This document shows positions 1 to 43,649 of a stretch of DNA of 64,000 nucleotides, piece after piece. The position numbers and the translations under genes are program-made. The notes under the pieces are model-generated. The model was not told where the DNA came from, made no database searches, and worked only from the letters and a program-made list of their open reading frames with translations. Each line of letters starts with the position of its first letter. Within the stretch, counting starts at the first letter, position 1. Origin of the DNA: a virus (lineage: Duplodnaviria; Heunggongvirae; Uroviricota; Caudoviricetes); IMG/VR virus record IMGVR_UViG_3300001357_000001, positions 1 to 64,000 of that record, one strand, 5' to 3'.

Positions 1-13
1 TGACGTATATACA

Positions 14-655
14 ATGTTAGCAGCTGGCGGGTTTAAGGTTTTAGTGGCTTGTGAAGAATCGCAGACAGTATGTAAAGCATTCCGAGCGTTGGGAATAGAG
101 GCTTATAGTTGTGATATACAAGAACCAAGTGGAGGGCATCCTGAATGGCATATACAAGGTGATGCGGTTAATGAGGCTTATAGTGGCAAATACAATATGA
201 TGATAGCACACCCACCTTGTACTTATATGAGCAAAGCAGGTGCAAGATGGATGTACCCCACAGCAGGGAATTTAAGCCAAGAAAGGTTTGAGTTAGCAAT
301 GGAAGCGAAGGATATGTTTATGAAATTACTTAATGCTCCGATTAAATATATTGCAGTTGAAAACCCTGTGCCTTTGAAAGTGGTGGGTTTGCCTAAACAT
401 AGCCAAGCGGTGCAACCTTATGAGTTCGGACACGAATACAGCAAGAAAACCCTGCTTTGGCTTAAAAATTTACCACTATTAGAGCCGACTAAAATAGTAG
501 AAAACTATAAGCCTTATTTACCTTCAAATACTGGTGGCAAAAAACGAGGACAAAGTTATAGTAGAGGAAAGGCAAAAAATGCAAAGGAAAGTAGTAAAAC
601 TTTTGAAGGAATAGCGAAGGCGATGGCTGAACAGTGGTTATTAGCTTGCTGCTAA
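14..655 (+). CDS. C5 cytosine DNA methyltransferase-like protein, probably 5' truncated by the window edge
   Basis: PPC-x3-S-x-AG stretch (HPPCTYMSKAG) resembles C5-MTase motif IV; VENPVP resembles motif VI (ENV); AAGGF near the N-terminus may be motif I; the frame is open to position 2. Confidence 0.45.
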   Translation: MLAAGGFKVLVACEESQTVCKAFRALGIEAYSCDIQEPSGGHPEWHIQGDAVNEAYSGKYNMMIAHPPCTYMSKAGARWMYPTAGNLSQERFELAMEAKDMFMKLLNAPIKYIAVENPVPLKVVGLPKHSQAVQPYEFGHEYSKKTLLWLKNLPLLEPTKIVENYKPYLPSNTGGKKRGQSYSRGKAKNAKESSKTFEGIAKAMAEQWLLACC

Positions 656-778
656 CGGTTGGATGTATATGTAGTGTGAGATTTGAAACACTAACTTTGA
701 TTAACCACAGAAGTTGATTAGAAGTAGAAATGTTGAATATACCACCGAACCTCACATTACATATACACCTTGTTATGT
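651..778. repeat. attC-like imperfect palindromic element, copy 1; its 5' end overlaps the stop codon of the upstream MTase
   Basis: GCTAAC-GGTTGGATGTATATGTAGTGTGAG ... CTCACATTACATATACACC-TTGTTATG; about 90% identical to the inverted copy at 38583-38710. Confidence 0.55.
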
Positions 779-957
779 GTAGGTGTGATTATTAAGAGAT
801 AAACTTTATTCGGAGAACTGAACAAAAATTTTAAAAGAAAAAGAAGGGTGGAAACTTTTTAAGAATAAATGAATATAATAAAAAACAGGGAAACCGAAAA
901 CTGATTAGAGTAGGTAAAATAGTAAATAACTTTTACAAAAAAACAAGATTAATTATC

Positions 958-1665
958 ATGGAAGAAAAATTAAAAAATGTATTTGAAAAAGAATACTCAG
1001 AAAACAAATTAACTGATTTTCTAATTAAAACTCAAAAAGTATATGAGTTTTTTGATTATGATTTCAATTTAAAACCAATAGAAATTATTTCAAAAGATTT
1101 TTATGGTGGTAAAGTTTGGTTGAATGAAGATTACGTAAATTGTTCAATATCAAATTTGGAGATAATCACATTTAACTTAGTCTATCCAAAATTAATAACT
1201 AAAATAGTTGAAACCAATTTAGAAAGATTTGGTGAAGTATATTCAAAATTGATTGAACTATATTATTTGGATAAGAACATTCAACTAAAACAGTATATTA
1301 ACATGACTTATGGTTGTTTACAAAATCCAGATTGTATGATATATTCTAATAACATACAATTAGTACCGAATAGACTAAATAAAATGTTAAGTGATATTTT
1401 ATCGGAATTTAAAGGACACGTTATTTATATTGATACCGACCAATTATTTTTTAGAAATTTTGATGAAATAAGAGAAAGATTTGAAAAGTATTTTAACAAA
1501 ATAAACAAATATGACTTAACTTATTTTTCTGAAAAATCAAAATTTGGATTATTTATACGAAAAAAACAATACTTAATAGAAGAAAATGGTATGATTAAAA
1601 TAAAAGGTATGAAACATTTCAACGAAGATGGTATGTGTCGTGGTGGTTTTATTAATATAAAATAA
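958..1665 (+). CDS. Family B DNA polymerase palm-domain fragment (motifs A, B, C and KxY only; no exonuclease or thumb domain)
   Basis: TFNLVYP resembles DxxSLYPS (motif A with Asp replaced by Thr); KQYINMTYG matches Kx3NSxYG (motif B); YIDTDQ matches YGDTDS (motif C); KKQY matches KxY; only 235 aa. Confidence 0.55.
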   Translation: MEEKLKNVFEKEYSENKLTDFLIKTQKVYEFFDYDFNLKPIEIISKDFYGGKVWLNEDYVNCSISNLEIITFNLVYPKLITKIVETNLERFGEVYSKLIELYYLDKNIQLKQYINMTYGCLQNPDCMIYSNNIQLVPNRLNKMLSDILSEFKGHVIYIDTDQLFFRNFDEIRERFEKYFNKINKYDLTYFSEKSKFGLFIRKKQYLIEENGMIKIKGMKHFNEDGMCRGGFINIK

Positions 1666-2209
1666 TTAATTATGTGGGTGGGTTCTTTTTCTAAAATTTT
1701 CTAACACAATAGTTAATTCGGAGAGGGAACTACACTTACACATAAAGGACACAAATATAAAACGTTTTAACTGAGAAATTAAAATAGAATGAATAATTTG
1801 ATAATTAGTATAAACTTTATTTTGAAAAACGAATAAAATGTTTTATATTTGTTGTTATAAGTATGTATTATTTTTGTTTTACCATATAAAAAGAATATAT
1901 TATGAAGGAATTAAATTTAAAATTAAAAACTAAGATTGTTGATTGTGAGGTTTCTTCAATTAAAACCAATATAATAATTGAAGAACCTGATATTGATATT
2001 GTAATACCGAGGAAAATCAGAAAGTCAGTTGAAAAACTTTTGATTGAAGAATTAAAAAACTCAAAACAAAAATAATATTATTTATAACGTATGGTTGTAT
2101 GAAACGTAGCGATAATAACGCACAAAATTTGATTAAATGTACCGACCTAGCAATATTAGTTTTTGAGGGTTGGCAAAAATAAATTTGAAAAATTTAAAAA
2201 GATACAAAT

Positions 2210-3184
2210 ATGAATGTACTTAGTTTATTTGACGGCATGAGCTGTGGACAAATAGCACTTAATAGATGTGGAATAAAATACGATAACTACTTTGCAAGTG
2301 AGATTGATAAATATGCGATAAAAGTAACACAAGCTAACTACCCAAACACAAAACAGCTTGGCAGTATTACAGAGCTTGACGGAACAAAACTTCCTAAAAT
2401 TGATGTAATGTTTGGTGGTAGCCCCTGCCAAAGTTTTAGTGTTGCAGGAGATGGTACTGGGTTTGGTGGTAAAAGTGGTTTATTTTGGGAATACGTAAGA
2501 ATATTAAAGGAAGTAAAGCCAACTTATTTTTTGCTCGAAAATGTAGTAATGAAAAAAGAATGGGAGCAGATTATTACCGATGCGGTAGGTGTAGAACCAA
2601 TATTAATTAACAGCAACTTGGTTAGTGGGCAAAATAGAAAACGCCTATATTGGACAAATATACCAAACGTAAAACAACCCATTGATAAGGGTATTTTGCT
2701 AAAAGATGTGCTACAGGACAATGTAGATGAAAAATACTTTTATAGTGAAAAGGCTATTAGTTACCTTGACCGAAATAAAATAAATAAGAGGTTTGCAAAC
2801 TACAGCGATAGCGAAAAAGCAAATTGCTTGACTGCTGTTTTTAGCAAAAGCCTACCTTATAATGTTTATGTTGACCAAGAAAAGAGTTATTGCTTGACAA
2901 GCAACTATGGTAATATGGCTTGCATTAACTACAATAAGGGACAAGGACAAATAGTGTTTGATAATAAAACTATTAGAAGATTAACACCTATTGAGTGTGA
3001 GAGATTGCAAACAGTGCCCGACAATTACACTAACCACGTAAGTAACACCCAAAGGTATAAGATGATTGGTAATGGATGGACGGTTGATGTAATTGTACAT
3101 ATTTTTAACCAAATGGCTGCGATAGCAGACAAAGAGGGGGAGGAAAAACTAATATTGCGACACAACAGCACCAATGTTGATTAA
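2210..3184 (+). CDS. DNA cytosine-5 methyltransferase (Dcm family)
   Basis: Motif I LFDGMSCG; motif IV GGSPCQSFSVAG; motif VI LLENV; C-terminal TRD plus motif IX-like QxGNG(W). Confidence 0.9.
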   Translation: MNVLSLFDGMSCGQIALNRCGIKYDNYFASEIDKYAIKVTQANYPNTKQLGSITELDGTKLPKIDVMFGGSPCQSFSVAGDGTGFGGKSGLFWEYVRILKEVKPTYFLLENVVMKKEWEQIITDAVGVEPILINSNLVSGQNRKRLYWTNIPNVKQPIDKGILLKDVLQDNVDEKYFYSEKAISYLDRNKINKRFANYSDSEKANCLTAVFSKSLPYNVYVDQEKSYCLTSNYGNMACINYNKGQGQIVFDNKTIRRLTPIECERLQTVPDNYTNHVSNTQRYKMIGNGWTVDVIVHIFNQMAAIADKEGEEKLILRHNSTNVD

Positions 3185-3297
3185 ATGAACGAACCTAGCT
3201 ATGTTTTATACAACGTGTTAGCAACTGTGCCTTATTTGGTACAACGAACGACAATTACAAGCATAGCAAAGGTTTATAAATTGATTTAGGCATTGTT

Positions 3298-3390
3298 GCT
3301 AACGGTTGGGTGTATGAGAAGGTTTGCTTGTAGAAGTTTTCAAATTACCACAAATGTTGATAGCAAACTTTCTTATACACCTTGTTATGC
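3298..3390. repeat. attC-like imperfect palindromic element, copy 2, downstream of the Dcm gene
   Basis: GCTAACGGTTGGGTGTATGAGAAGGTTTGC ... GCAAACTTTCTTATACACCTTGTTATGC; arms complementary with two conserved mismatch positions. Confidence 0.55.
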
Positions 3391-3498
3391 TCTCGTGCCG
3401 ATTTATTAAGTACAAAACTTAATTTGGAACACTAAAGAAAAACAAAAAAAATTTAGGTGGAAAATTAAAATTTGAATATTTATATATAAAAGAAAACG

Positions 3499-3918
3499 AT
3501 GAAAGATTTGAAGAAATTTATAGCAACTACCATAAGAGAATATTTGAATGAATCAACAAAAGTATTTGGTTATAGAAATACTAATTCTAATAAAATCGGC
3601 AAATATGGTACATTTTATAATGTGAAAAATACAAATCATTACAATACTAATATCGTAGAATTAAATTTTAAAAATCCATTAATTATTGAAGATAGCGATG
3701 TATATAATTTTGAAGGTCTTACCTTAGAATATTTATTTTGGAAATGGTTTCCTGAATTAGAAGATACTTACGTAATTATGGCTAAAAAACAAGGGATTGA
3801 AACTGGTGAATTAATTGATAAATTAGTTACTAAAGAAGCAATCAAAAGAGGTTATGATGGTATCATTATGTGTGATTTAGAAATTGTTGATTTAACAACT
3901 CATCCAAACTTTAAATAA
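3499..3918 (+). CDS. hypothetical protein
   Basis: ORF of 139 aa on the same strand as its neighbours. Confidence 0.4.
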   Translation: MKDLKKFIATTIREYLNESTKVFGYRNTNSNKIGKYGTFYNVKNTNHYNTNIVELNFKNPLIIEDSDVYNFEGLTLEYLFWKWFPELEDTYVIMAKKQGIETGELIDKLVTKEAIKRGYDGIIMCDLEIVDLTTHPNFK

Positions 3919-3974
3919 GTATGTAGGGAAAATTCTTTTTGTTTTTCATCACAAATGTTAAATCGAAGAACTGA

Positions 3975-4045
3975 ACTAAGGCATGGAGCATAACGGCTAT
4001 GGGTATGGAGTCGGTTTTTTACGGGTTTGAAACACTAAAATTAAA
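3975..4045. repeat. truncated copy of the palindromic element (left half only)
   Basis: GCATAACGGCTATGGGTATGG ... GTTTGAAACACTAA resembles the 5' half of the element at 651-778. Confidence 0.35.
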
Positions 4046-4048
4046 TAT

Positions 4049-4315
4049 ATGAATAAGGTAGATATAATTAGAAAGCACATAGGTGACGATGACTTTTACG
4101 ATATGAACGGAACATCAATGTTAACCAACATTTTGAACGCAATGGAAGAGTATAAGGAACAGGAAGTAAAAAACTGCTCTATACCCGATGTTAGCCAACA
4201 ACGTGAACAGTTAATTGATTTTGCTATTCGATTTGACGGTGGAAATACAAGAACAAATAGAAAGGCTTACGAGCAAGAAGTTGACGACTACCTAAAATCA
4301 ATTAATTGTGGCTAA
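4049..4315 (+). CDS. hypothetical protein
   Basis: ORF of 88 aa. Confidence 0.35.
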   Translation: MNKVDIIRKHIGDDDFYDMNGTSMLTNILNAMEEYKEQEVKNCSIPDVSQQREQLIDFAIRFDGGNTRTNRKAYEQEVDDYLKSINCG

Positions 4316-4352
4316 CTATTATATATAAAACTTAATATTTAAAATATTAATC

Positions 4353-5159
4353 ATGAGTAATTTAGCTGATAATTTTTTAATGATTTATATTGAAAAGTTA
4401 AAATATTTTAATTATTCTAAACATACTATTAGAGATTATTCGCATTATTTTGAAAAATTTTTGATTTATGTTAATAAATATCCTCAACATCTAACATCTA
4501 ATGATTTCGAGAATTATTTATTAAACTATAAATTTTCATCAGTTTCTCAACAAAATCAAATAATTAACGCATTAAAGTTTGGATATGAAAAAGTTTTAAA
4601 TAAAAAATATAATAAAATTGATTTTCAAAGACCAAGAACCGAGAAAAAAATACCACAAATAATTGATAAAGAATTTCTATTAAATAGAATACCAAAAATC
4701 AAAAATATTAAACATAAGACAATAATATCTTTAGCATTTAGTGTAGGATTAAGAGTTTCAGAAGTAATTAATTTAAAAATAAAAGATATTGATTCTAAAA
4801 GAATGATAATTAATATTTATCAAGGTAAGGGTAAAAAGGATAGAATTGTTCCGTTGTCAGAAAACATTTTAAATTTATTGAGAGAATATCATAAACAATA
4901 TAAGCCAAATGAATATTTATTTAATGGTCAAAAATTACAACAATATTCACCAGAAAGTTGTAATAAAATAGTAAAAAAATATTTAGGTAATGAATATCAT
5001 TTTCATTTACTTAGACATAGTTGTTTTACTACATTATTAGAATCAGGAACAGATTTAAGAATAATTCAAAAATTAGCTGGTCATTCATCAAGTAAAACTA
5101 CGGAAATTTATACTCATGTAAGCACTAATTTATTATCCAAAATTAATTTACCAATATAA
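4353..5159 (+). CDS. Tyrosine site-specific recombinase (XerC/D-like phage integrase family)
   Basis: C-terminal catalytic signature HLLRHSCFTTLLESGTDLRIIQKLAGHSSSKTTEIYTHV (HxxR ... Y); conserved Arg in the SVGLRVSE box. Confidence 0.85.
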   Translation: MSNLADNFLMIYIEKLKYFNYSKHTIRDYSHYFEKFLIYVNKYPQHLTSNDFENYLLNYKFSSVSQQNQIINALKFGYEKVLNKKYNKIDFQRPRTEKKIPQIIDKEFLLNRIPKIKNIKHKTIISLAFSVGLRVSEVINLKIKDIDSKRMIINIYQGKGKKDRIVPLSENILNLLREYHKQYKPNEYLFNGQKLQQYSPESCNKIVKKYLGNEYHFHLLRHSCFTTLLESGTDLRIIQKLAGHSSSKTTEIYTHVSTNLLSKINLPI

Positions 5160-5160
5160 T

Positions 5161-5190
5161 TGTAACATTTCACAACATTTTTCGTATAAT
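5161..5190 (+). promoter_or_regulatory. phage promoter-like motif, -35 TTGTAACA / extended -10 TTTCGTATAAT
   Basis: TGTAACATTTCACAACATTTTTCGTATAAT lies about 18 nt upstream of the ATG at 5208. Confidence 0.55.
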
Positions 5191-5228
5191 TGTAAAAATA
5201 ATTTCTAATGAATAAAATTAATAAAATA

Positions 5229-5267
5229 GAATCCCTCTCAAAAGATTTGATTATCGTGAGAGGGATT
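5229..5267 (+). other. perfect 11 bp inverted repeat (hairpin) inside the short leader ORF, ending just before the in-frame TAA
   Basis: GAATCCCTCTC-N17-GAGAGGGATTC. Confidence 0.6.
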
Positions 5268-5273
5268 CCGTAA

Positions 5274-5630
5274 GTGACAGGTTCGGGAAAATCAACCTTT
5301 GCTGGAATGGTTGGCAGAGCAATCTGTTGTGCTGATGATTATTTCACATATGGGAATGATTATCGTTGGTCACCAGATAAAGTAAGTGCTGCTCATGATT
5401 GGTCTCAACGTAAATGTAGACGTTTCATGAAAGCAGGTATTGAACGTATTGTTGTTGCTAATACCAGCACAAGAGTAAGAGAAATGCAACCATATATGGA
5501 TTTAGCTGAACAGTTTGGATATAGAGTATTCACAGTTATTGTTGAAAGTCGTCATGGCAATAAAAGTGTTCATAATGTTCCAGAAGAAACTCTGGAAAAA
5601 ATGAGAGAACGTTTTAACATAAAATTATAA
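5274..5630 (+). CDS. P-loop kinase of the polynucleotide kinase (PNK/AAA_33)-like type. The reading frame continues upstream to the ATG at 5208 but is interrupted by TAA at 5271
   Basis: GSGKST Walker A sits at residues 3-8 of the GTG-initiated ORF; the upstream in-frame peptide MNKINKIESLSKDLIIVRGIP looks like the missing beta-1 strand; GC content is higher than the surroundings. Confidence 0.5.
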   Translation: MTGSGKSTFAGMVGRAICCADDYFTYGNDYRWSPDKVSAAHDWSQRKCRRFMKAGIERIVVANTSTRVREMQPYMDLAEQFGYRVFTVIVESRHGNKSVHNVPEETLEKMRERFNIKL

Positions 5631-5632
5631 TT

Positions 5633-5986
5633 ATGAGAATGTGGATGGTAGACCCAAAAATTTTATGTAATAAACACTTGCTTGGAGAACATGGTGAGAT
5701 TCATAAACACAGGCATAATTTCGTAAAACAACATAGTATTACGAAAAGAGTCTCACCTGTTGTTCAAATTCAACCATCGGCAATGCAAAGCAGACATGAT
5801 GAACTTGCAGTAGAAATGTTGAGAAGAAATATGAATCATAAGTCTCCTTTTAAGCAACCAGATATATCATATCTTCCAACAAATGAAAGGTCTGTTGTTG
5901 TTGATATACAGAACTCAATTAAGGATTTAAGTAATAGATGTTCTGAATGTGCTAAACGAATAAATAATATGAATTATGTGTTATAG
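5633..5986 (+). CDS. denV: Pyrimidine dimer DNA glycosylase (T4 endonuclease V / DenV-like)
   Basis: NKHLLGEHGEI and RHDELAVEMLRRNMN align with T4 EndoV DQHLMAEYREL and RQIELIAECLKRGFN. Confidence 0.5.
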   Translation: MRMWMVDPKILCNKHLLGEHGEIHKHRHNFVKQHSITKRVSPVVQIQPSAMQSRHDELAVEMLRRNMNHKSPFKQPDISYLPTNERSVVVDIQNSIKDLSNRCSECAKRINNMNYVL

Positions 5987-6200
5987 TGGTAGATGTAGAT
6001 GGGAAAATCATATGGGAGATTGTAGATTTCCTAGTAGTAAAAAAGTAACTGAAAAATATCCATTACCTGTTTGTGAAATACCTACATGTGAAGAAGAATG
6101 CACTGAAGAACATGAGAAGTTTCTTAACGAGGTCTATGATGATATTCAAAAAATATTAGAAGATGAAAAAAGAAGAGATAAAGAAAATAATAAAACCTGA
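5976..6200 (+). CDS. small Cys-rich (zinc-ribbon-like) acidic protein
   Basis: CRFPSS ... CEIPTCEEEC. Confidence 0.3.
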   Translation: MCYSGRCRWENHMGDCRFPSSKKVTEKYPLPVCEIPTCEEECTEEHEKFLNEVYDDIQKILEDEKRRDKENNKT

Positions 6201-6714
6201 AAACGGTATTGAAGAAGCAATAATTGGTAACGAATACTTTATCGAAGGCTGTCAATATGGTCGCCCCCGAAAAGGACATCCAGAAGGACAGGTTATATAT
6301 CATATAAAAGAAGTGCTTGAAAACATAGATGAGTTTTACGGTGATGATGAAGACCGTAGTGATTTACGATTATTAGCAATACTTCATGATAGTTTTAAAC
6401 ATAAGGTAGATAGAACCAAACCAAGAGTCGGTGAAAATCATCATGGAATGATTGCAAGAAGATTTGCAAGTAGTTATCCTATTGCTAATCACGTATTAGT
6501 TATTTTAGAAAAACATGATGATGCATTTAATGCATGGCAGAAAGGTGGAAGACATAATAATTGGTATAAAGCAGAAAATACTGCTAATCAACTTATTCAA
6601 GGATTACTTATTGAAAACTGTTTAGACCTTTACGTGAAATTTTTTAAATGTGATAATCGTACAGGTGATAAACAGCAAGATAATTACGAATGGTTTATTA
6701 ATTTAATAAAATAA
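6163..6714 (+). CDS. HD-domain phosphohydrolase
   Basis: H ... HD motif (LAILHDSFKH) with downstream His and Asp residues (HHGMIARR, EKHDDAF). Confidence 0.55.
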   Translation: MKKEEIKKIIKPENGIEEAIIGNEYFIEGCQYGRPRKGHPEGQVIYHIKEVLENIDEFYGDDEDRSDLRLLAILHDSFKHKVDRTKPRVGENHHGMIARRFASSYPIANHVLVILEKHDDAFNAWQKGGRHNNWYKAENTANQLIQGLLIENCLDLYVKFFKCDNRTGDKQQDNYEWFINLIK

Positions 6715-8065: not shown

Positions 8066-8863
8066 ATGAAAAATAATATTAAATTAGGACATCAAGCACC
8101 TAAAGGCTGGAGAGTTGATAGATTCAATAGTATTGAAATCAGTGGTGATTTACATTACTGTTTATCACATAATTTCGTATATGATTGTGAAGAAGAAGAA
8201 CGTAAACTTTATAACGCCCAGCCTTGTTATTATACTGATGATAGATTTACTGATACTATTCATAATTATTTTAAAAAAACTTATTTGTATTGGACACGTT
8301 ATTATGATATTAGTTTGAAAGCATGTATCAGAAGAACACTCCAAGTAAAAAATATTCCTGTTGGAACTATTGTCGAGTTCAAAAAAAGTTGGTATTATCC
8401 GAAAAGAAGAATTGATAATAGTTATAAATTTAAAATCAAGAAATTTAATCCTTTGGATATTAAATATGAAATTAACTTGCCAAAATATAAAAGAAATTTT
8501 GAAAATGACGAATTCTCTCAAAAATTAACAGAAGCACTTCGTGCTAATGGTTTCATTGTTGGTGTAAGTGAAGGAAACCCAAACTTTCTGTCTTCAATGA
8601 TTAGTACTGCTGCAGCATATACTGGTCAAGTAGTTCAAGAACAAGATGAAAATGGTCAAATAGCAGTTGCATACGGACATGGAAGAATTATTGGATTTAG
8701 TACTGGTGAAAATAGTTTCAGAGGCTATGGTAATGGTTGTGAAAACATACTTTATGATTTTCATGAAGAATTTAATAAATGGAGTCAATGTATTGAAATT
8801 CATAAATCAACACCAATTGATGAAATAATTAAAGAATTAACTGACGATAAAATAGATAAATAA
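8066..8863 (+). CDS. hypothetical protein
   Basis: 265 aa ORF; its start overlaps the upstream stop. Confidence 0.45.
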   Translation: MKNNIKLGHQAPKGWRVDRFNSIEISGDLHYCLSHNFVYDCEEEERKLYNAQPCYYTDDRFTDTIHNYFKKTYLYWTRYYDISLKACIRRTLQVKNIPVGTIVEFKKSWYYPKRRIDNSYKFKIKKFNPLDIKYEINLPKYKRNFENDEFSQKLTEALRANGFIVGVSEGNPNFLSSMISTAAAYTGQVVQEQDENGQIAVAYGHGRIIGFSTGENSFRGYGNGCENILYDFHEEFNKWSQCIEIHKSTPIDEIIKELTDDKIDK

Positions 8864-9375: not shown

Positions 9376-9892
9376 TAATGGCAGCAATAACAATTGAATA
9401 CGAAGTAGGTGATGAAGTAAAACTACCTTTTGATGAAGAAGGTGAAATAGTTGAAATTCAAGAACTACCTTGGATGACAAAATATTGGGTTGGAATCACA
9501 AAATCTACTGATTTTAATTTAGTCGGCAGCATTGTTGATTTTTTTGAGAAACAATTGGAATTAAAGAAAAAATAATTATATTTACAAACTTAAAACAAAA
9601 AAGATATGATACCTTTTATTATTACTATGTTAGTATTCCTATTAGGAATATATTATTTAACAATTTTTTTACATTTATTAGATATACCTGTATTTGGTAA
9701 GGGTGTTGAAATACGAATATGGTTGTCGTTAATACCTTTCTATTATTGGTTTAAAAAAGAAAAAGTTAATACTGAACCACCAATTGTTGAAGAAACAGTA
9801 AAGAAAGAATATATTAGTAATAAAGAAAAGTAAAATTTATTCGTAGAGAGAACATAAATATTTAAACAATTATTAATTAAAATCAAGAAAAA

Positions 9893-11089
9893 ATGAAGAA
9901 CAAAAAAGTTTTAGCAGTAGCATTTGTAGTGTTAGCTGTAATTTTTTTAGCATTAGCTAAAAGTTTATTTGAAACAAACAACGCAGGTTATTTCCAAGTT
10001 AAACAAGCAGCAATTACTGGTGATATGTCAGTAAGATTTGATGCTGGTACATACGGACAGTGGTTTGGTAACATTAGTGAATATAAAAATGTTGCTACTG
10101 TAGGTATTGGAACACATAGAGGTGAGGGTAGTGCTGATATTTCAGCAGTTCCAGTTATCTTTAATGATGGTTCTAAAGCACAGATTTCTGCATTAATCAG
10201 GGTAAAATTACCTGATACATATGAAGGTGCTATTGAACTTAAACGTGAGTACGCACAGGGATATGAACACTTTATTCGTTCAGGTATTGTTCCGATTGTT
10301 CAAAATGCCATTAAATTAGGTGCTAACCTTCGTAGTGCACAGGATGCATATACTACATTAGCATTATTTCAACAAGCAGTTGAAGACCAATTAAAAAATG
10401 GTATATATGTAACGAAATCCGATAAAATTACGAAAACAACAAGTACTGGTGATGTTGAAGAACAACGAGTAACTGTATTAGTATATGGCGAAGATGGTAA
10501 ACCATTAAGAACAGCTAATCGTTTACAACAATTAGGTTGTGAAGTATTAGAATGTGTAATAGATGTACCTAAATTCGATGCTAAAGTTGATGAAATGATT
10601 GCTGCTCGTAAAGACGAAGCAATGAAAACAGAACTTGCAAAACAAGCAGCTATTCGTGCAAAACAGGATGCGATTACTGCTGAACAACAAGGTCTTGCTA
10701 ATGTAGCAGAAGCCAAATATAAGAAAGAGGTAGAACTTGTTGAAGCAACAACAAAGGCAAGAGAGAAATTTGAAGTAGCGCAATTCGAAGCAAAGAAAGC
10801 ATTGGAAGAAAAGAAAGCAATTATTGCCAAGGGTCAAGCTGAAGCCGAAGCAAACCGCTTAAAGGTTAGAGCAGGTCTTTCTCCACAGGAAGCTGCAGAA
10901 TGGAATTATAAAACAACTGTTGGTGTTGCTGCTGAAATGGCAAAAGCACAACCGGGAGCATTCGTACCTAATATCATGGTAGTAAATGGTGCTAATGCTA
11001 AATCAGGTGGTAATTCAAATGCTATGGATGCTATTGGATTGAATATGTTACTTGATGTTCAGAGTAAAATTGGTAAGCCTAAAAAATAA
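9893..11089 (+). CDS. SPFH/band-7 (flotillin/HflKC-like) membrane protein
   Basis: N-terminal transmembrane helix followed by a long Ala/Glu/Lys-rich coiled-coil (KGQAEAEANRLKVRAGLSPQEAAEW) typical of flotillin/YqiK C-termini. Confidence 0.45.
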   Translation: MKNKKVLAVAFVVLAVIFLALAKSLFETNNAGYFQVKQAAITGDMSVRFDAGTYGQWFGNISEYKNVATVGIGTHRGEGSADISAVPVIFNDGSKAQISALIRVKLPDTYEGAIELKREYAQGYEHFIRSGIVPIVQNAIKLGANLRSAQDAYTTLALFQQAVEDQLKNGIYVTKSDKITKTTSTGDVEEQRVTVLVYGEDGKPLRTANRLQQLGCEVLECVIDVPKFDAKVDEMIAARKDEAMKTELAKQAAIRAKQDAITAEQQGLANVAEAKYKKEVELVEATTKAREKFEVAQFEAKKALEEKKAIIAKGQAEAEANRLKVRAGLSPQEAAEWNYKTTVGVAAEMAKAQPGAFVPNIMVVNGANAKSGGNSNAMDAIGLNMLLDVQSKIGKPKK

Positions 11090-13466: not shown

Positions 13467-13979
13467 ATGGATAGAGAAGAATTTAATAAGAAATTAAAAA
13501 ACGAATTAGCTATTTCAGTTATACAGGGTAAAAATACTAGTAATTTATTAAAATTATATGAAGAACTATCCATTGAAATATCGGAATCAAAAAGATATTT
13601 AAATTATAATAAAAAATTAAGTGAATTATCTGTTGAAGAAGCAATTAATGCATGCATGAAACATGGTATTAATTTTAATCCTAAAAAAAGTAATAATGCT
13701 GTTGCATACATGATTCAAATAATAAAAAGTAGTTTCGCCAATACTTATTTAAAAGAATATAAAAAGAAATATCGCATGACCGAAGAAGACTTTAATGAGT
13801 TTATTAATGAAATAATTCCTCAACAACTATTCCACGTAGAACCACAAGACATTGATGATGAAAGTGGTGCTAAACTAGATGAAGTAATATTAGTAAGTCT
13901 TATTGCTAATAGACCAAGTTGTTTGAAACATAAACCATTGCAATGGTTTATTGATTATTTTTTAATTTATAATAAATAA
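13467..13979 (+). CDS. hypothetical protein
   Basis: 170 aa ORF. Confidence 0.4.
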   Translation: MDREEFNKKLKNELAISVIQGKNTSNLLKLYEELSIEISESKRYLNYNKKLSELSVEEAINACMKHGINFNPKKSNNAVAYMIQIIKSSFANTYLKEYKKKYRMTEEDFNEFINEIIPQQLFHVEPQDIDDESGAKLDEVILVSLIANRPSCLKHKPLQWFIDYFLIYNK

Positions 13980-26576: not shown

Positions 26577-27149
26577 ATGATAATTAAATCTAAATGTGGT
26601 AAATACAACATTCAAATCGATAAAGAAGACCACAAAAAAGTAATCGACTTCGCACTTAATGGCTGGGAAATTAGATATTTTACTGCTTCTAATAATCCTT
26701 ATGCTATTACCAGAAAAACAATTGATGGTAAAAGAAAACAATTCTTCATACATAGATTAATAATGGATGTTTTAAACAGTACAACACCTCATGTTGACCA
26801 TAAAGATAATAATCAAAAATCTAATTTAAGATTGGTTAGTAGGTCACAAAACATGAAGAATCGAACTAGTGCAAAAAATAGTAGTTCTAAATATCTTGGG
26901 GTATCTTGTTGTAATTATAAGAAAAATAAAAAATACAGAACAGTAATTAAAGATAATGTCATTGGTCGTATTCATTTAGGTTATTATTACGATGAAGATA
27001 GTGCTGGATATGCATATAATCTTGCAGCAGAAATAATTCACGGTGAATTTGCTAATCTAAATAAAATTAATATAAATGATGTAGATAATTCTGATGAAAT
27101 CAAGGAATATGTTGAGAATGCTTTAAAACGATATAATTTTAAATTATGA
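26577..27149 (+). CDS. HNH homing endonuclease with an AP2 DNA-binding domain
   Basis: HVDHKDNNQKSNLRLVSRSQN (HNH); YLGVS ... YRTVI ... IHLGYYYDEDSAGYAYN (AP2). Confidence 0.7.
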   Translation: MIIKSKCGKYNIQIDKEDHKKVIDFALNGWEIRYFTASNNPYAITRKTIDGKRKQFFIHRLIMDVLNSTTPHVDHKDNNQKSNLRLVSRSQNMKNRTSAKNSSSKYLGVSCCNYKKNKKYRTVIKDNVIGRIHLGYYYDEDSAGYAYNLAAEIIHGEFANLNKININDVDNSDEIKEYVENALKRYNFKL

Positions 27150-27341
27150 AACTAAAAACAGTTAAATTTGATTTTAGTAAATGCAATAAAGAGCAGAAAA
27201 TGATGTTATATGAAGAATGTATTACATTATGTGCGTTAAGCACAACATGTTCTGCTGACCATAAAGAATGTGTTGCATTAATTTATTTAGAAGAAGACAC
27301 AAAGAATAATTAAAGTAATTCTGGACATTGTGTTATGTACA

Positions 27342-27758
27342 TTATTCCCTCCAGTTAGGAGGATTTTTACTATGTACATTGATATAGTGTTCATCAAGGT
27401 CTTCTAACATCTTAAAACATCTGTTCTTTAAAAGATTATATGGTCGATGTACATTACCATAATGGTCAAGCCATAACTTTTTACCTAATTCTGGTGCATG
27501 AGAATAATTCATTTTGTACATTTCAGCTAGTTCATCTTCAATAGCGAATGCTGGCATGGACAATCTACCGACATAATCAAGTACTTTTATAATTTCTTCA
27601 AAAATAGAAATGAAATCATTATCTGAAATCAATTTATTTGTTCTGACTATTTTACTAAGTCTTGCTTTTAATTTTTCAATAATATCTTCTGCTGTTGATA
27701 ATTGATTATCATGATTAGGAAGATTAAAATCTGTTTTAATTAATTCTACTTCTGGCAT
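27342..27758 (-). CDS. hypothetical protein
   Basis: 138 aa; first gene of the minus-strand block. Confidence 0.4.
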   Translation of the reverse strand: MPEVELIKTDFNLPNHDNQLSTAEDIIEKLKARLSKIVRTNKLISDNDFISIFEEIIKVLDYVGRLSMPAFAIEDELAEMYKMNYSHAPELGKKLWLDHYGNVHRPYNLLKNRCFKMLEDLDEHYINVHSKNPPNWRE

Positions 27759-34746: not shown

Positions 34747-34887
34747 TCATTTGCCAACGCTCTTAAATATCTTTTTATACCATTTGTTTTCTTTTCTGCA
34801 TTCAGGGCAGCCACTTTTCCCACTTGGGGTTGTTGCGTATTTTCCGTGCTTTTTACAGTTATTCCATCTATAATTTCCTAATTTCAT
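34747..34887 (-). CDS. 46 aa zinc-ribbon protein (cassette ORF; not in the ORF track)
   Basis: MKLGNYRWNNCKKHGKY ... CPECRK; starts 31 nt after an attC-like GTTAGGC core. Confidence 0.35.
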   Translation of the reverse strand: MKLGNYRWNNCKKHGKYATTPSGKSGCPECRKENKWYKKIFKSVGK

Positions 34888-34918
34888 AATCTTGTTTTTA
34901 TCCCACCGCACAAAAACG

Positions 34919-35050
34919 AAAGCCTAACAATGTACATAGGTAATTTGCCGTTTTGTTTTGGTAGTTTAGTTTATAATTTAATCTTTATCTCGTTCTAGTT
35001 GCTTCGGTTCGTCAAGCAGGGGCAAACATACCCATGTACTCAACGTTAGG
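34919..35050. repeat. attC-like element A
   Basis: GCCTAAC-aatGTACATaGGTAaTTTGCC ... GGCAAAcaTACCcATGTACtcaac-GTTAGGC; sits between the stop at 35070 and the start at 34887. Confidence 0.6.
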
Positions 35051-35596: not shown

Positions 35597-35880
35597 TTAG
35601 CTACTAAATTGCTTTTGTGCGGTTCGACAGTTAGTAGCTCCTAATCGCCACCGCTTCATACAATTTACCGTTATGCACAATTAAATTATTACTTATAGTG
35701 TTTATTATAGTATTCTTCACCTACTTGCTCTTTTAAGTATTCATCAGCGTCCATTCCATATAAATCATAGTCGGTCAATTTATCTGTGTTATTGTTCCAC
35801 ATACCAACAAAAGCAAGTATCAAGGCAAGTAATATTATTAAAGCTATTGTTATTCCTATCCATTCCATAATTTTAAAAGT

Positions 35881-36002
35881 ACCTAACAATGTGTATAAGC
35901 AATAGCCGTCAGGCGTTTTTACTATTGCAGTTGTTTAATTATTAATTTTGTTTCTATCTAGTTGGTTCGTGTAGGCTACTGCTCATACACTCGTCCGTTA
36001 GC
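35881..36002. repeat. attC-like element B
   Basis: ACCTAAC-aatGTGTATaAGCAaTAGCC ... GGCTActgCTcATACACtcgtcc-GTTAGCA; compensatory changes relative to element A preserve the hairpin; the 3' core overlaps the stop of the gene at 36005. Confidence 0.55.
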
Positions 36003-38582: not shown

Positions 38583-38710
38583 GATAACAAGGTGTATATG
38601 TAATGTGAGGTTCGGTGGTGTATTCAACATTTATACTTCTAATCAAGTTCTGTGGTTAAATCAGATGTAGTGTTTCAAATCTCACACTACATATACACCC
38701 AACCGTTGTG
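38583..38710. repeat. attC-like palindromic element, inverted copy of the 651-778 element
   Basis: reverse complement is about 90% identical to 657-785. Confidence 0.6.
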
Positions 38711-40485: not shown

Positions 40486-42774
40486 CTATGATAAATCCAT
40501 AGCAAGCTGTAAAATTGTTATTTGTTCTTCTTCTAAGTTTTCTGCATTCCAAGGAAGATTAAAATAACTTAATGTTTTAGTATTTTTCTTTTGCAATTCT
40601 TCAACTTCATCTACCCATTCACAAAATTCTTTTTGTTCTTTAGTAGGTTTTACTTTTTGAAAATCAAAATATTGACCTAATTCACTTCTATAATGTTGTA
40701 TTCTACTATCTCTAATATTATTAGGAATTGTATTGATAAAGGCATTAATTTTCTCAATCTTCTTTCCCCAATTATCATCAATTTTATTAATAAAACCTTT
40801 ACGATAAAAATCGGCAAGACCTTGATATTTTTCAACAACACTATATATTTGAAAATATTTCAATATCATGTCTTCTTTTCTCGGCAACATATAGGTAAAG
40901 AAATCTTTTATGTGTCTGGCATTCTTACAATACTTCAAATATTTAGTATTGTTTTTCGATACCTGTATAAACATAATGCTCTTTTTATCACTATCACTTT
41001 TCAAATTTTTTCTATAATCAATACGTCTGACAACAGCATCAGCATCAAATAAGAGTTTAAACAACCTAACTGCTTCATCAAGTTTATAATCATCATCAGT
41101 AGTACCATAGAAAATCGGCATATTATAATCAAATAAATTACCTAACTCAACTCTGTCTCTGGAATAACCGCCAATAAATTTAACAGGAATAGTCTTTTTT
41201 CTAAGTTCAGAACTAAGTTCGTTTTTACGTTTACGACTTTCAATAAATTCTTGTGGTACTTCTAATTCATCATAATCAATTCCATTCTCACGAATGATAT
41301 CGAAATATTCTTCTTGCATATCAATTAATTCCTGAACAAAAGGTAGTGTATTACCTTTGTCATCAACAATATCATCAAGATGTACATTGAATACGTCAGC
41401 AATATCAGAACGTGACCACTTACTAATTATTCTTTTCTTAATAATATAGTATGTCTCGAACTCACTCTTAAGATATGATTGCTTAATCATTTTACGATTA
41501 AACTCACCATCAACATATACTATGTTATTCTTATTTACAATCGTCTCATATCCACCTTCAAATCCGTCTCTACTTGCATAATAACCATATCTTCTTCTAG
41601 GCTTTTTACCATAGGTTTTTGCATCAAAGAAAAATCTAAACAATTGTTTGTCATTAGGCATTTTAGTAAATTGATACTTGAAGTTTGAGAAGTCAATATC
41701 TTTTTGAGTAATTAGATTTCCTACGTACATTGACTTGTTATTAGGAAAAACTAATTTACCGAAGTCATGCTTAACCTGAAAATATTCCTTTAATGTAACA
41801 ATGTCTTCATATTGCTTACTAATTAAAGTAATAATTTCATTCTTAGCTGCTTCTAACTTCTTCTTCAACATTTTGATTGTAGTCTCACTATAATCAAGAC
41901 TCTCACGACTAACTGTAACACCTATGTCACCTACTTCAAGTTTTAGTGCAATTGGTAGACTGTAATCGCTTGAATGTAAATCTAATGCATCATAATCAAT
42001 CGGATAAGCGACTTTACCTAAACACACGTGCATGTTGTTACTATAGTCATCACCACGAAATAAGAAGTTCTTACCTCTGATTATCAGATAATCATTAGTT
42101 AATGTATCATGTTGATATGTGTCTTCAAAACCTTCAAAAATGATGTTTTCGAAGTAATAAAGTTGTCTCACCATTTCTTTAGCAAAAGTGCTAATATCTT
42201 TTTCAAGTACTGGAACTTGGATTTCAGTACCATTTCTTTCTTCTGTTGGTTCTTCATGAAGTTTTGAAATTCGAGGTGTATGTTTACCTTCATATATATG
42301 ATATATGTATTTAATACCATTAAAAACAGTTATAATTTGATATGAATTATCATATTCTGCTTCACCTAAACCTATTTTACGTTTATATGCTAACGGGGTC
42401 TTCGAACCCAACCCAAACGCACCAATCTGGTCATTACTATCACGTTTAGTACTACTAAACATCACAGAAAATATTGTATCTATTCTTTGTGGTGATATTC
42501 CAACACCATAATCAATAAAACTAATATAATGAGTACCCGTTGTATTATCTTGATGTTTTTTTATTAAAACAGGGGCATTAGCTCCTGCTTCAACATGACT
42601 ATCAAAACAATTCGATGTTATCTCACGAACAACACTACCAATAGGATTACTATAAATGTTTTTTGAAAACATTTGAAAAATAATGCTTTGTGAATCATTA
42701 GATAATGTAATATCTTTTTCTTCGGTTGTAGTCAAAACATCAACATCGGAATAACTATTAATATCGTATTTCAT
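40486..42774 (-). CDS. rIIA: rIIA-like protein with an N-terminal GHKL (Hsp90/MORC-type) ATPase domain
   Basis: N box EITSNCFDS, G1 box FIDYGVGIS, G2 box IGAFGLGSKT; 762 aa, comparable in size to T4 rIIA. Confidence 0.55.
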   Translation of the reverse strand: MKYDINSYSDVDVLTTTEEKDITLSNDSQSIIFQMFSKNIYSNPIGSVVREITSNCFDSHVEAGANAPVLIKKHQDNTTGTHYISFIDYGVGISPQRIDTIFSVMFSSTKRDSNDQIGAFGLGSKTPLAYKRKIGLGEAEYDNSYQIITVFNGIKYIYHIYEGKHTPRISKLHEEPTEERNGTEIQVPVLEKDISTFAKEMVRQLYYFENIIFEGFEDTYQHDTLTNDYLIIRGKNFLFRGDDYSNNMHVCLGKVAYPIDYDALDLHSSDYSLPIALKLEVGDIGVTVSRESLDYSETTIKMLKKKLEAAKNEIITLISKQYEDIVTLKEYFQVKHDFGKLVFPNNKSMYVGNLITQKDIDFSNFKYQFTKMPNDKQLFRFFFDAKTYGKKPRRRYGYYASRDGFEGGYETIVNKNNIVYVDGEFNRKMIKQSYLKSEFETYYIIKKRIISKWSRSDIADVFNVHLDDIVDDKGNTLPFVQELIDMQEEYFDIIRENGIDYDELEVPQEFIESRKRKNELSSELRKKTIPVKFIGGYSRDRVELGNLFDYNMPIFYGTTDDDYKLDEAVRLFKLLFDADAVVRRIDYRKNLKSDSDKKSIMFIQVSKNNTKYLKYCKNARHIKDFFTYMLPRKEDMILKYFQIYSVVEKYQGLADFYRKGFINKIDDNWGKKIEKINAFINTIPNNIRDSRIQHYRSELGQYFDFQKVKPTKEQKEFCEWVDEVEELQKKNTKTLSYFNLPWNAENLEEEQITILQLAMDLS

Positions 42775-42827: not shown

Positions 42828-43649
42828 TCATTTAATCGTCTTTTTTATTGAAAATCCTTTACCACAGTCTTTACATTTAAATCTAATAGAATTATTTCTT
42901 TCACCATTTTTTAATATATTAGGACTATTACAAGTAGAACAACACATATTTCTATCTAAAACTTTATTAACTGGTTTATAATTTAAACATTTTTCTGCTT
43001 TTCTTTTTAATGATATAGTTGAATCATTATACATAAATTTAATTAATTTAAGTATTTCAGATGTTTTAATAAATGATAAATTATAATATGTTTGTTTACC
43101 TTTTCCTTTAGGTGGTTTTACAATAATTTTCCACGATTTCATATCATGTGTTTTCAAATAGGAATTAATTTCATATATAAATTCTTTAGCAACACAACTA
43201 AATTCGATGACTATTAAATTTCTTCTTTTGGCTCTTCTATAAACACTACCATCAGCATCAAAAAATCCTCTAATAAAATGTCGTATTAATTCTGATTTAA
43301 TATTCGGAAGTCTTAATTCATTTGCATTCTCATATGATTTTCTTGGGTATATACCATTTGATAATAAATCCTCATATAATTCTTTAGATGATTTTGAAAG
43401 ATATATTTGTTTTTTCGAATTTTCATTATATTTTGAATAATCGAAGTTACCTACATTAAAAAAAGGGAAATATTCTCTTAATTGATAAATTAAATCTTTA
43501 TCGATAATATTAACACTAATTTTGGTTAAATATCTTATTCTACCCGTCTTCTCCTTATATGTTGTTATTGTACCATCACCATAAAGAAAACCTAATAAAT
43601 ATGCTTTTTCCTGACTATCTATTCTTTTTAATTCATTATTGTACTTCAT
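42828..43649 (-). CDS. LAGLIDADG homing endonuclease (double motif) with a C-terminal zinc ribbon
   Basis: YLLGFLYGDGTI and IRGFFDADGSV; C-terminal CCSTCNSP ... CKDCGKGF. Confidence 0.75.
   Translation of the reverse strand: MKYNNELKRIDSQEKAYLLGFLYGDGTITTYKEKTGRIRYLTKISVNIIDKDLIYQLREYFPFFNVGNFDYSKYNENSKKQIYLSKSSKELYEDLLSNGIYPRKSYENANELRLPNIKSELIRHFIRGFFDADGSVYRRAKRRNLIVIEFSCVAKEFIYEINSYLKTHDMKSWKIIVKPPKGKGKQTYYNLSFIKTSEILKLIKFMYNDSTISLKRKAEKCLNYKPVNKVLDRNMCCSTCNSPNILKNGERNNSIRFKCKDCGKGFSIKKTIK

Follow-up and report, generated by a model that had tools for sequence, protein, structure and literature searches.

Inactivated and exapted homologues of family-B DNA polymerases (PolBs) include the herpesvirus helicase-primase subunit UL8, the poxvirus protein F12 and the C-terminal half of Pol epsilon, which have kept the full multi-domain architecture of a PolB and lost essentially all of its motifs. 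They make up a functional class and not a monophyletic family. PolBs encoded in pieces are represented by the split enzyme of Methanothermobacter and by gp43 of T4-related phages, which is divided at the fingertip into 43A and 43B, the two halves lying 2 bp to 3 kb apart (PMC3061061). Archaeal PolB2/Dpo2 is a PolB paralogue with disrupted motifs that stands beside the main replicase and was long thought to be inactive (PMC2527604, PMC8764526), and it is reported to be active in the extension of lesions and mismatches (PMC8764526). Barbaviruses carry divPolA2, an extra minimal polymerase-like gene in a variable neighbourhood that lacks the exonuclease and a canonical thumb, with a replicase also present (PMC11348598). 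Here we analysed a 64,000-nt stretch of viral DNA (positions 1 to 64,000 of the IMG/VR record IMGVR_UViG_3300001357_000001, Caudoviricetes), hereafter the window, in which the open reading frame (ORF) at 958-1665 on the plus strand encodes a stand-alone PolB palm and fingers module of 235 amino acids, termed mini-PolB below. Our analysis indicates that the gene is intact and under selection, stands alone and belongs to a T4-related megaphage of about 0.6 Mb. With a probability of about 0.6, we consider the mini-PolB to be an exapted, probably non-catalytic palm and fingers module that represents a new, widespread megaphage family.

The ORF extends from ATG to TAA (stop codon included in the coordinates) and has a GC content of 22%. 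Its motifs, all on the plus strand, were read off the sequence and then checked by hidden Markov model (HMM) alignment to solved PolBs. The motif A-like strand IITFNLVYPK (residues 69-78, nt 1162-1191; HMM alignment SNLEIITFNLVYPK / SDVLVLDFSSMYPN) displays Thr71 (nt 1168-1170) at the position of the catalytic Asp, reading TFNLVYP against the canonical DxxSLYPS, and retains the steric-gate Tyr76 and Pro77. Motif B, KQYINMTYG (residues 111-119, nt 1288-1314), matches the KxxxNSxYG of archaeal PolB and places Lys111, Asn115, Tyr118 and Gly119 on the second fingers helix. Motif C, YIDTD (residues 157-161, nt 1426-1440), matches the YxDTD of PolB, with Asp159 and Asp161 on a palm beta-hairpin, and KKQY (residues 202-205, nt 1561-1572) matches the KKRY/KKKY form of the KxY motif. 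The alignment covers residues ~370-611 of the 774-775 residues of Thermococcales-type PolBs. The thumb is absent, as the match to PolB breaks off some 15 residues past KxY, at residue ~610 of the 774 that make up the Thermococcus-type enzyme, and there is no N-terminal or exonuclease domain, since 235 residues leave no room for one; the Pfam family DNA_pol_B_exo1 has no match in the protein. A sequence-only reading of the locus had described motifs A, B, C and KxY in their proper order, the exchange of the motif A Asp for Thr with the DTD of motif C kept, and the lack of exonuclease, N-terminal and thumb domains, all of which the alignment upholds.

The relationship to PolB becomes visible only with a family profile or a structure model. 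Searches of Pfam, PHROGs and PDB sequences (phmmer) with the single sequence gave no PolB match, the scores lying below all Pfam PolB thresholds. The only matches were to DUF6561, below threshold (18.3 bits against a cut-off of 27), and to two PHROGs without an assigned function; all were taken as noise. A profile of 28 orthologues had one match among PDB sequences, an archaeal PolB (E = 0.81), collinear across all four motifs. When the profile was built from 49 diverse family members, 59 of the 60 listed PDB matches were family-B polymerases, with Thermococcales PolB as the best (E = 2.8e-15), Pol alpha at about 1e-9 and phi29 at 4e-5. The assignment to DNA_pol_B that had been proposed from the sequence alone therefore fails for the single protein against Pfam and holds for the family profile against the PolBs of the PDB. 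Structure prediction further supports it: the AlphaFold2 model is confident and compact (predicted local distance difference test score 88.1, predicted template modelling score 0.82), the top 50 Foldseek matches in the PDB are all PolBs (E ~1e-8, query-normalised template modelling score 0.52-0.69), and the Foldseek result against BFVD is consistent with PolB. The fold is that of a PolB-type palm, similar to an RNA recognition motif, with short fingers of two helices. The protein encoded at 958-1665 is thus a PolB-derived palm with short fingers, and the similarity is far beyond chance.

The gene had been called an orphan, a description that does not stand. A first database search recovered 48 homologues of 56-96% identity, nearly all of ~235 amino acids (234-248), with a few shorter ones (138-217) and none of them named, and an exhaustive profile search of 1.84 billion representatives yielded 173 clusters (50% identity) at E<=1e-3 and 79 at E<=1e-10. 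Among the best 150 of these 173 clusters, the proteins have lengths of 54-461 amino acids, mostly 220-340, and no full-length PolB was among those listed. Pfam, PHROGs and the source records hold no name for the family, and a search of viral contigs for related loci with the single protein gave no match. The orthologue at locus L003, on a contig of 594,474 bp, is 84% identical to the window protein, and the DNA of the two loci is 85% identical over window positions 652-1745. As far as could be seen, the family is confined to phage-type contexts, mostly huge phages. No tblastn match to the mini-PolB was obtained with two family queries in the published Lak genomes MK250015-MK250029 (Prevotella phages Lak-A/B/C), whereas a query with the N-terminal half of a replicative PolB matches the Lak records (at least 14 records listed) and one with the C-terminal half matches 15 Prevotella-phage records. 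Its absence from Lak-A/B/C by tblastn indicates that the family is not universal among megaphages and that the window phage does not belong to those Lak lineages. Megablast with 31 kb of the window likewise detected no related genome in the phage collection, of which the Lak genomes are part.

The truncated architecture, the substituted catalytic residue and the missing single-sequence Pfam match would all fit a decaying pseudogene, or a chance ORF left by a disrupted polB or an assembly artefact. This explanation is effectively refuted. The ratio of nonsynonymous to synonymous substitution rates (dN/dS) is 0.12-0.25 (0.12 against L003, 0.22 against the orthologue at L006) with saturating dS, dozens of independent assemblies (JGI, ENA, Logan and NCBI) agree on where the gene starts and stops and on its length, the fold is confident and compact, and the leader in front of the gene is conserved. 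The suggestion that the ORF might be the remnant of a split or disrupted polB is consequently abandoned, the gene being intact and the split halves found in a relative being other genes (see below); the evidence favours the other reading offered at the time, that of a repurposed polymerase fragment.

The pattern of conserved residues was compared between 43 close orthologues and 139 members of the broad family. In the broad family, position 71 is occupied by Ser (38), Glu (36), Thr (27), Asp (9) and a mixture of others, which gives 45 of 139 members with an acidic residue; one relative of this acidic type reads IDFNSLYP. Other positions vary little: Tyr76 is found in 126 members, Pro77 in 118, Asn115 in 132, Gly119 in 134, Asp159 in 119, Asp161 in 127, Lys203 in 119, Tyr205 in 102 and Gly217 in 128, while position 111 is Lys in 103 and Arg in 22; the D..D pair of motif C is present in 110 of the 139. 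Among the close orthologues, Thr is found at position 71 in 33 of 43 and Asp in none. Asn56, Pro77, Asn115, Tyr118, Gly119 and Tyr157 are invariant in this set, while Asp159 is replaced by His, Asn or Ser in 3/43 and Asp161 by Asn, Tyr, Arg, Phe or Cys in 5/43.

The motif A carboxylate of palm polymerases ligates both catalytic metals. The absence of this Asp, together with the tolerated loss of a motif C Asp in otherwise conserved orthologues, suggests that the subfamily does not polymerize DNA. The residues that line the pocket for the deoxynucleoside triphosphate (dNTP) and the primer terminus (Tyr76, Lys111, Asn115, Tyr118, Gly119 and KKxY) are conserved, and their retention, together with that of DTD in the family at large, speaks for a pocket that is still of importance. 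We posit that the mini-PolB may be a pseudo-polymerase, that is, a non-catalytic module that would bind nucleotides, DNA ends or another protein as partner. It may act in the control of replication, or in host takeover or counter-defence, and its expression would be governed by the conserved structured 5' leader described below.

An alternative is that the mini-PolB is an active minimal nucleotidyltransferase, a PolB-type enzyme without thumb and exonuclease whose metal site combines the motif C aspartates with Ser, Thr or Glu, and which would produce short DNA, add nucleotides to an end or to a protein, or form another nucleotide product. The dNTP-binding and motif C residues conserved in the broad family (Lys111, Asn115, Gly119, Asp159, Asp161 and Lys203) speak for it, as does the window protein itself, which keeps Lys106, Lys111, Asn115, Tyr118, Asp159, Thr160, Asp161 and KKQY. 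So do the 45 family members with Glu or Asp at the motif A position and two precedents, PolB2/Dpo2, which is reported to be active against the earlier prediction (PMC8764526), and the thumbless divPolA2, which is predicted to be active (PMC11348598). However, Thr71 takes the place of a universally required carboxylate, none of the 43 close orthologues restores the Asp, and eight of them have lost one motif C Asp (to Phe, Tyr, Arg and others) and are yet full-length and otherwise conserved. There is also no thumb or other domain that could clamp DNA. We regard this alternative as unlikely, and retain it because the pocket residues and the DTD of the wider family are kept.

The sequence-only reading had also raised the question of further polB segments, inteins or introns. 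None were found within the window: translation in the standard code and with TAG read-through revealed no other PolB piece, and neither an intron (Rfam, positions 1-6000 and the whole window) nor an intein was detected. An origin of the gene from an intron, intein or homing element was ruled out, as there is no Rfam intron and the ORF is compact and without an extra domain. The complete 636-kb relative LR756504, which has a 291-residue member of the mini-PolB family, was used to examine the idea of a split polymerase. It contains exactly one mini-PolB (617,840-618,718) and, as separate genes, a canonical PolB split at the fingertip. The N-terminal half (495 amino acids, 255,869-257,353, plus strand, locus L013) has the motif A YDFASLYP and matches Pfam DNA_pol_B_exo1 and positions 19-146 of DNA_pol_B, and the C-terminal half (408 amino acids, 537,995-539,218, minus strand, locus L018) has KLSLNGSYG and YVDTDS and matches DNA_pol_B positions 123-236. 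Jointly, the halves hold the exonuclease motifs, motif A with its Asp, motifs B and C and the thumb region, and the mini-PolB is a third gene. Both halves, apart from each other, also occur in LR756500-503 and LR745206 (tblastn), and the distance between them ranges from ~13 kb in LR756500 to more than 100 kb, reaching ~280 kb in LR756504. In these Mahaphage-type huge phages, the halves of the replicative gp43-like PolB are therefore much farther apart than in T4-like phages. In hhalign, the mini-PolB family reached a probability of only 42% against the C-terminal half of LR756504, a weak match which argues that the mini-PolB is not a recent copy of the replicase. There is a hint that it stands nearer to PolBs of the archaeal/Pol alpha type than to the gp43-like enzyme of the phage.

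These findings bear on the possibility that the mini-PolB is itself a piece of a split replicative PolB, with the exonuclease, N-terminal and thumb parts encoded elsewhere and assembling with it. Natural fingertip splits of gp43 in T4-like phages do reassemble into an active enzyme (PMC3061061; PMC2988022), and relatives of the window phage do carry a split PolB. In LR756504, however, the two halves already contain every PolB element, and the mini-PolB repeats motifs A to C, without the motif A Asp, rather than complementing them. All listed family members are short, none stands beside exonuclease or thumb genes in nine loci, and the 64-kb window offers no other piece to join. This possibility is thus very improbable. 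With the replicase accounted for in relatives, the mini-PolB is probably an extra gene and not part of the replicase.

A number of observations weigh against an exapted, non-catalytic role. Asp159, Asp161, Lys111, Asn115 and KKxY are among the best-conserved positions of the broad family, about one third of whose members carry an acidic residue (Glu or Asp) at that point of motif A, a pattern that one would sooner expect of a functioning active site than of a scaffold like UL8. The case of PolB2/Dpo2 also counts here, a protein predicted to be inactive and yet reported to be an active polymerase (PMC8764526). The separate replicase was seen in the genomes of relatives, while the window phage was inspected over 64 kb only. 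Finally, as no neighbour of the mini-PolB is conserved, the assignment to a process, replication or counter-defence, rests on weak association.

The gene is preceded by a conserved leader. A hairpin/pseudoknot RNA motif resembling DUF805b (Rfam RF02914) lies at 884..916 on the plus strand, 42 nt upstream of the ATG. It scores 34.5 bits (E 5e-6) in the window, below the gathering score of 35.6, and is the only Rfam match in the whole window at E<=0.01. The motif is found at the same position in orthologous loci, above threshold in L003 (38.5 bits) and L025 (36.7 bits) and below it in L022 (34.5), L023 (32.2) and L021 (32.1). The leaders of L006 and L024 are divergent, with different yet self-complementary stem and loop/downstream pairings (judged by eye only). 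Between this element and the gene, the segment ATAGTAAATAAYTTTTAC-A-rich-GATTAATTATC (919..957, plus strand) leads directly to the ATG, contains a small hairpin (GTAAA/TTTAC, 922-936) and is nearly invariant in eight loci whose proteins are 58-85% identical. Across loci with proteins of this identity, the 75 nt 5' of the ATG are more strongly conserved than the coding sequence. The invariant ATAGTAAATAAYTTTTAC...GATTAATTATCATG that follows the DUF805b-like element is unique in the window. A sigma-70 scan was uninformative (14 sites, 12.7 expected), and a terminator scan found none.

In a more tentative, rather improbable proposal, the mini-PolB would be the smallest functional PolB derivative, reduced to palm and fingers and still able to bind a complex of metal and nucleotide. 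It would either perform an unconventional nucleotidyl transfer with an active site centred on motif C or serve as a nucleotide-sensing or regulatory subunit that docks onto the split replicase halves and controls the assembly or activity of this fingertip-split megaphage replicase. Under the same proposal, a pseudoknot leader of the DUF805b type, acquired from regulation as found in Bacteroidota, would act as the gate for production of the protein.

The genomic surroundings of the mini-PolB are variable. The window is AT-rich (~28% GC) and contains many short genes. As had been described, the gene lies between two DNA methyltransferase (MTase) cassettes, one upstream (ORF 14-655, phrog_757, E 7e-53) and one downstream (ORF 2210-3184, PF00145 C5 MTase, E 3e-50), which turn out to be variable insertions and not a fixed context. 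They are not present at the orthologous locus L003, where homology to the window sets in at position 652, exactly past the upstream MTase and its stop codon, and we therefore consider them local insertions. Their GC content of 33-36% compares with 22% for the mini-PolB ORF, and because they are GC-richer than the phage background, the site looks like an insertion hot spot. An MTase-linked cassette was ruled out, since the MTases vary between loci. MTases of five families (phrog_757 C5-like, PF00145, Eco57I/N6, N6_N4 and Dam D12) lie within ~5 kb of the mini-PolB in five loci (window 1-3184; L003 15103-16266; L007 3050-3754; L021 3913-4749; L024 4905-5879). Nine mini-PolB loci were examined, and the ORFs of seven were compared by all-against-all BLASTP, in which the mini-PolB alone was common to all seven and its neighbours were mostly small unknown ORFs; no conserved operon partner emerged. 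The only shared neighbour, and only between the window and L003, is a tyrosine recombinase ~3 kb downstream (Phage_integrase with SAM-like N-domain; window 4353-5159, plus strand, and L003 11910-12713, 55% identity), a gene unexpected for a presumably lytic megaphage.

In L006 and L007, the mini-PolB orthologue is flanked by the Pfam families Tad3, Tad6 and Tad8, which are inhibitors of Thoeris (PMC13243611). The mini-PolB could accordingly be a counter-defence protein, a non-catalytic palm mimic that would bind or decoy either a sensor or effector of host immunity or a signal or analogue derived from a nucleotide. Its location in a hypervariable region rich in anti-restriction-type genes, with the five MTase families and the Tad genes nearby, points in this direction. 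These are associations, however, and no neighbour is conserved; moreover, conservation of the mini-PolB, with a single copy per genome, is much broader and more stable than that of the genes around it, and accessory anti-defence genes do not usually behave in this way. A counter-defence function of this kind is doubtful in our estimation. What emerges looks like a conserved gene within a hypervariable accessory region. This setting lends weak support to a role in host takeover or counter-defence, and a core role, for instance in replication, would agree just as well with the gene's stable conservation in single copy.

Several further features were observed in the window and at L003. A repeat of ~125 nt with the consensus AACGGTTGGGTGTATATGTAGTGTGAG...CTCACATTACATATACACCTTGTTAT occupies intergenic positions and starts right after gene stops. 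Copies lie in the window at 652-790 (plus strand) and 38584-38707 (minus strand) and in L003 at 2981-3120, 3854-3982, 6204-6330, 8436-8562, 9693-9830 and 10805-10924, at least six copies in 20 kb of this 594-kb relative. It folds into a long hairpin (minimum free energy -36.9 kcal/mol, z -3.4) in which differences between copies appear to be compensatory, and may serve in termination, processing or recombination. At window positions ~27000-27400, gene orientation and GC skew flip from the plus strand before to the minus strand after, which marks the convergence point of two transcription blocks. A free-standing ORF similar to LAGLIDADG homing endonucleases (42828-43649, minus strand; PF14528, E 7e-17) lies directly upstream of a 762-residue rIIA-like gene containing a HATPase (40486-42774, minus strand). 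Two short stretches resemble other phages: 137 nt at 35866-36002 are 91% identical to Cellulophaga phage phi18:3, and 49 nt at 34882-34930 are 100% identical to a Rhodobacteraceae phage. Both fall in a GC-richer region at 35-37 kb (GC ~0.35) with few long ORFs and no Rfam match. ARAGORN found no transfer RNA (tRNA) in the window. In L003, Rfam tRNA matches of 121 and 83 nt (13501-13621 and 13782-13864) exceed the usual tRNA length, which fits the report of tRNAs with introns in Lak-type megaphages (PMC8346664).

Set beside the described systems, the mini-PolB combines features of several. It shares the palm and fingers subdomains with solved PolBs (archaeal PolB, Pol alpha, Pol delta, Pol II, RB69 gp43 and phi29), but has only about one fifth to one third of the size of the matched enzymes (571-1,190 amino acids) and Thr in place of the motif A Asp. 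With UL8, F12 and the C-terminal half of Pol epsilon, it has in common the loss of catalytic carboxylates (Thr71, variable Asp159 and Asp161) under selection, whereas it consists of palm and fingers only and keeps motifs B, C and KxY. Like PolB2/Dpo2, which is a much larger multi-domain protein, it is a PolB-type gene with disrupted motifs, and no close sequence relationship between the two was detected. The split gp43 and the split PolB of Methanothermobacter are, like the mini-PolB, PolB-derived pieces, and the relatives of the window phage have the same fingertip split as 43A/43B. Those halves are complementary, however, and jointly hold all canonical residues, while the mini-PolB is self-contained, its motif A is degenerate, and it exists in addition to them. 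The pattern of an extra, thumbless gene in a variable neighbourhood is shared with divPolA2, which in contrast belongs to the PolA family and whose catalytic residues are, by prediction, intact.

Few enzymes have been studied as thoroughly as family-B polymerases. Even so, our literature searches for small, shortened or free-standing PolBs brought up no account of a palm and fingers module that stands alone. As a minimal PolB core made by nature, the mini-PolB lends itself to the question of how much of palm and fingers suffices for binding a nucleotide or a DNA end, and it would add a further example of polymerase exaptation to those of UL8 and F12. Its gene-specific structured RNA leader is a testable candidate regulator. 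As a large family under purifying selection, the mini-PolBs are a real component of megaphage biology.
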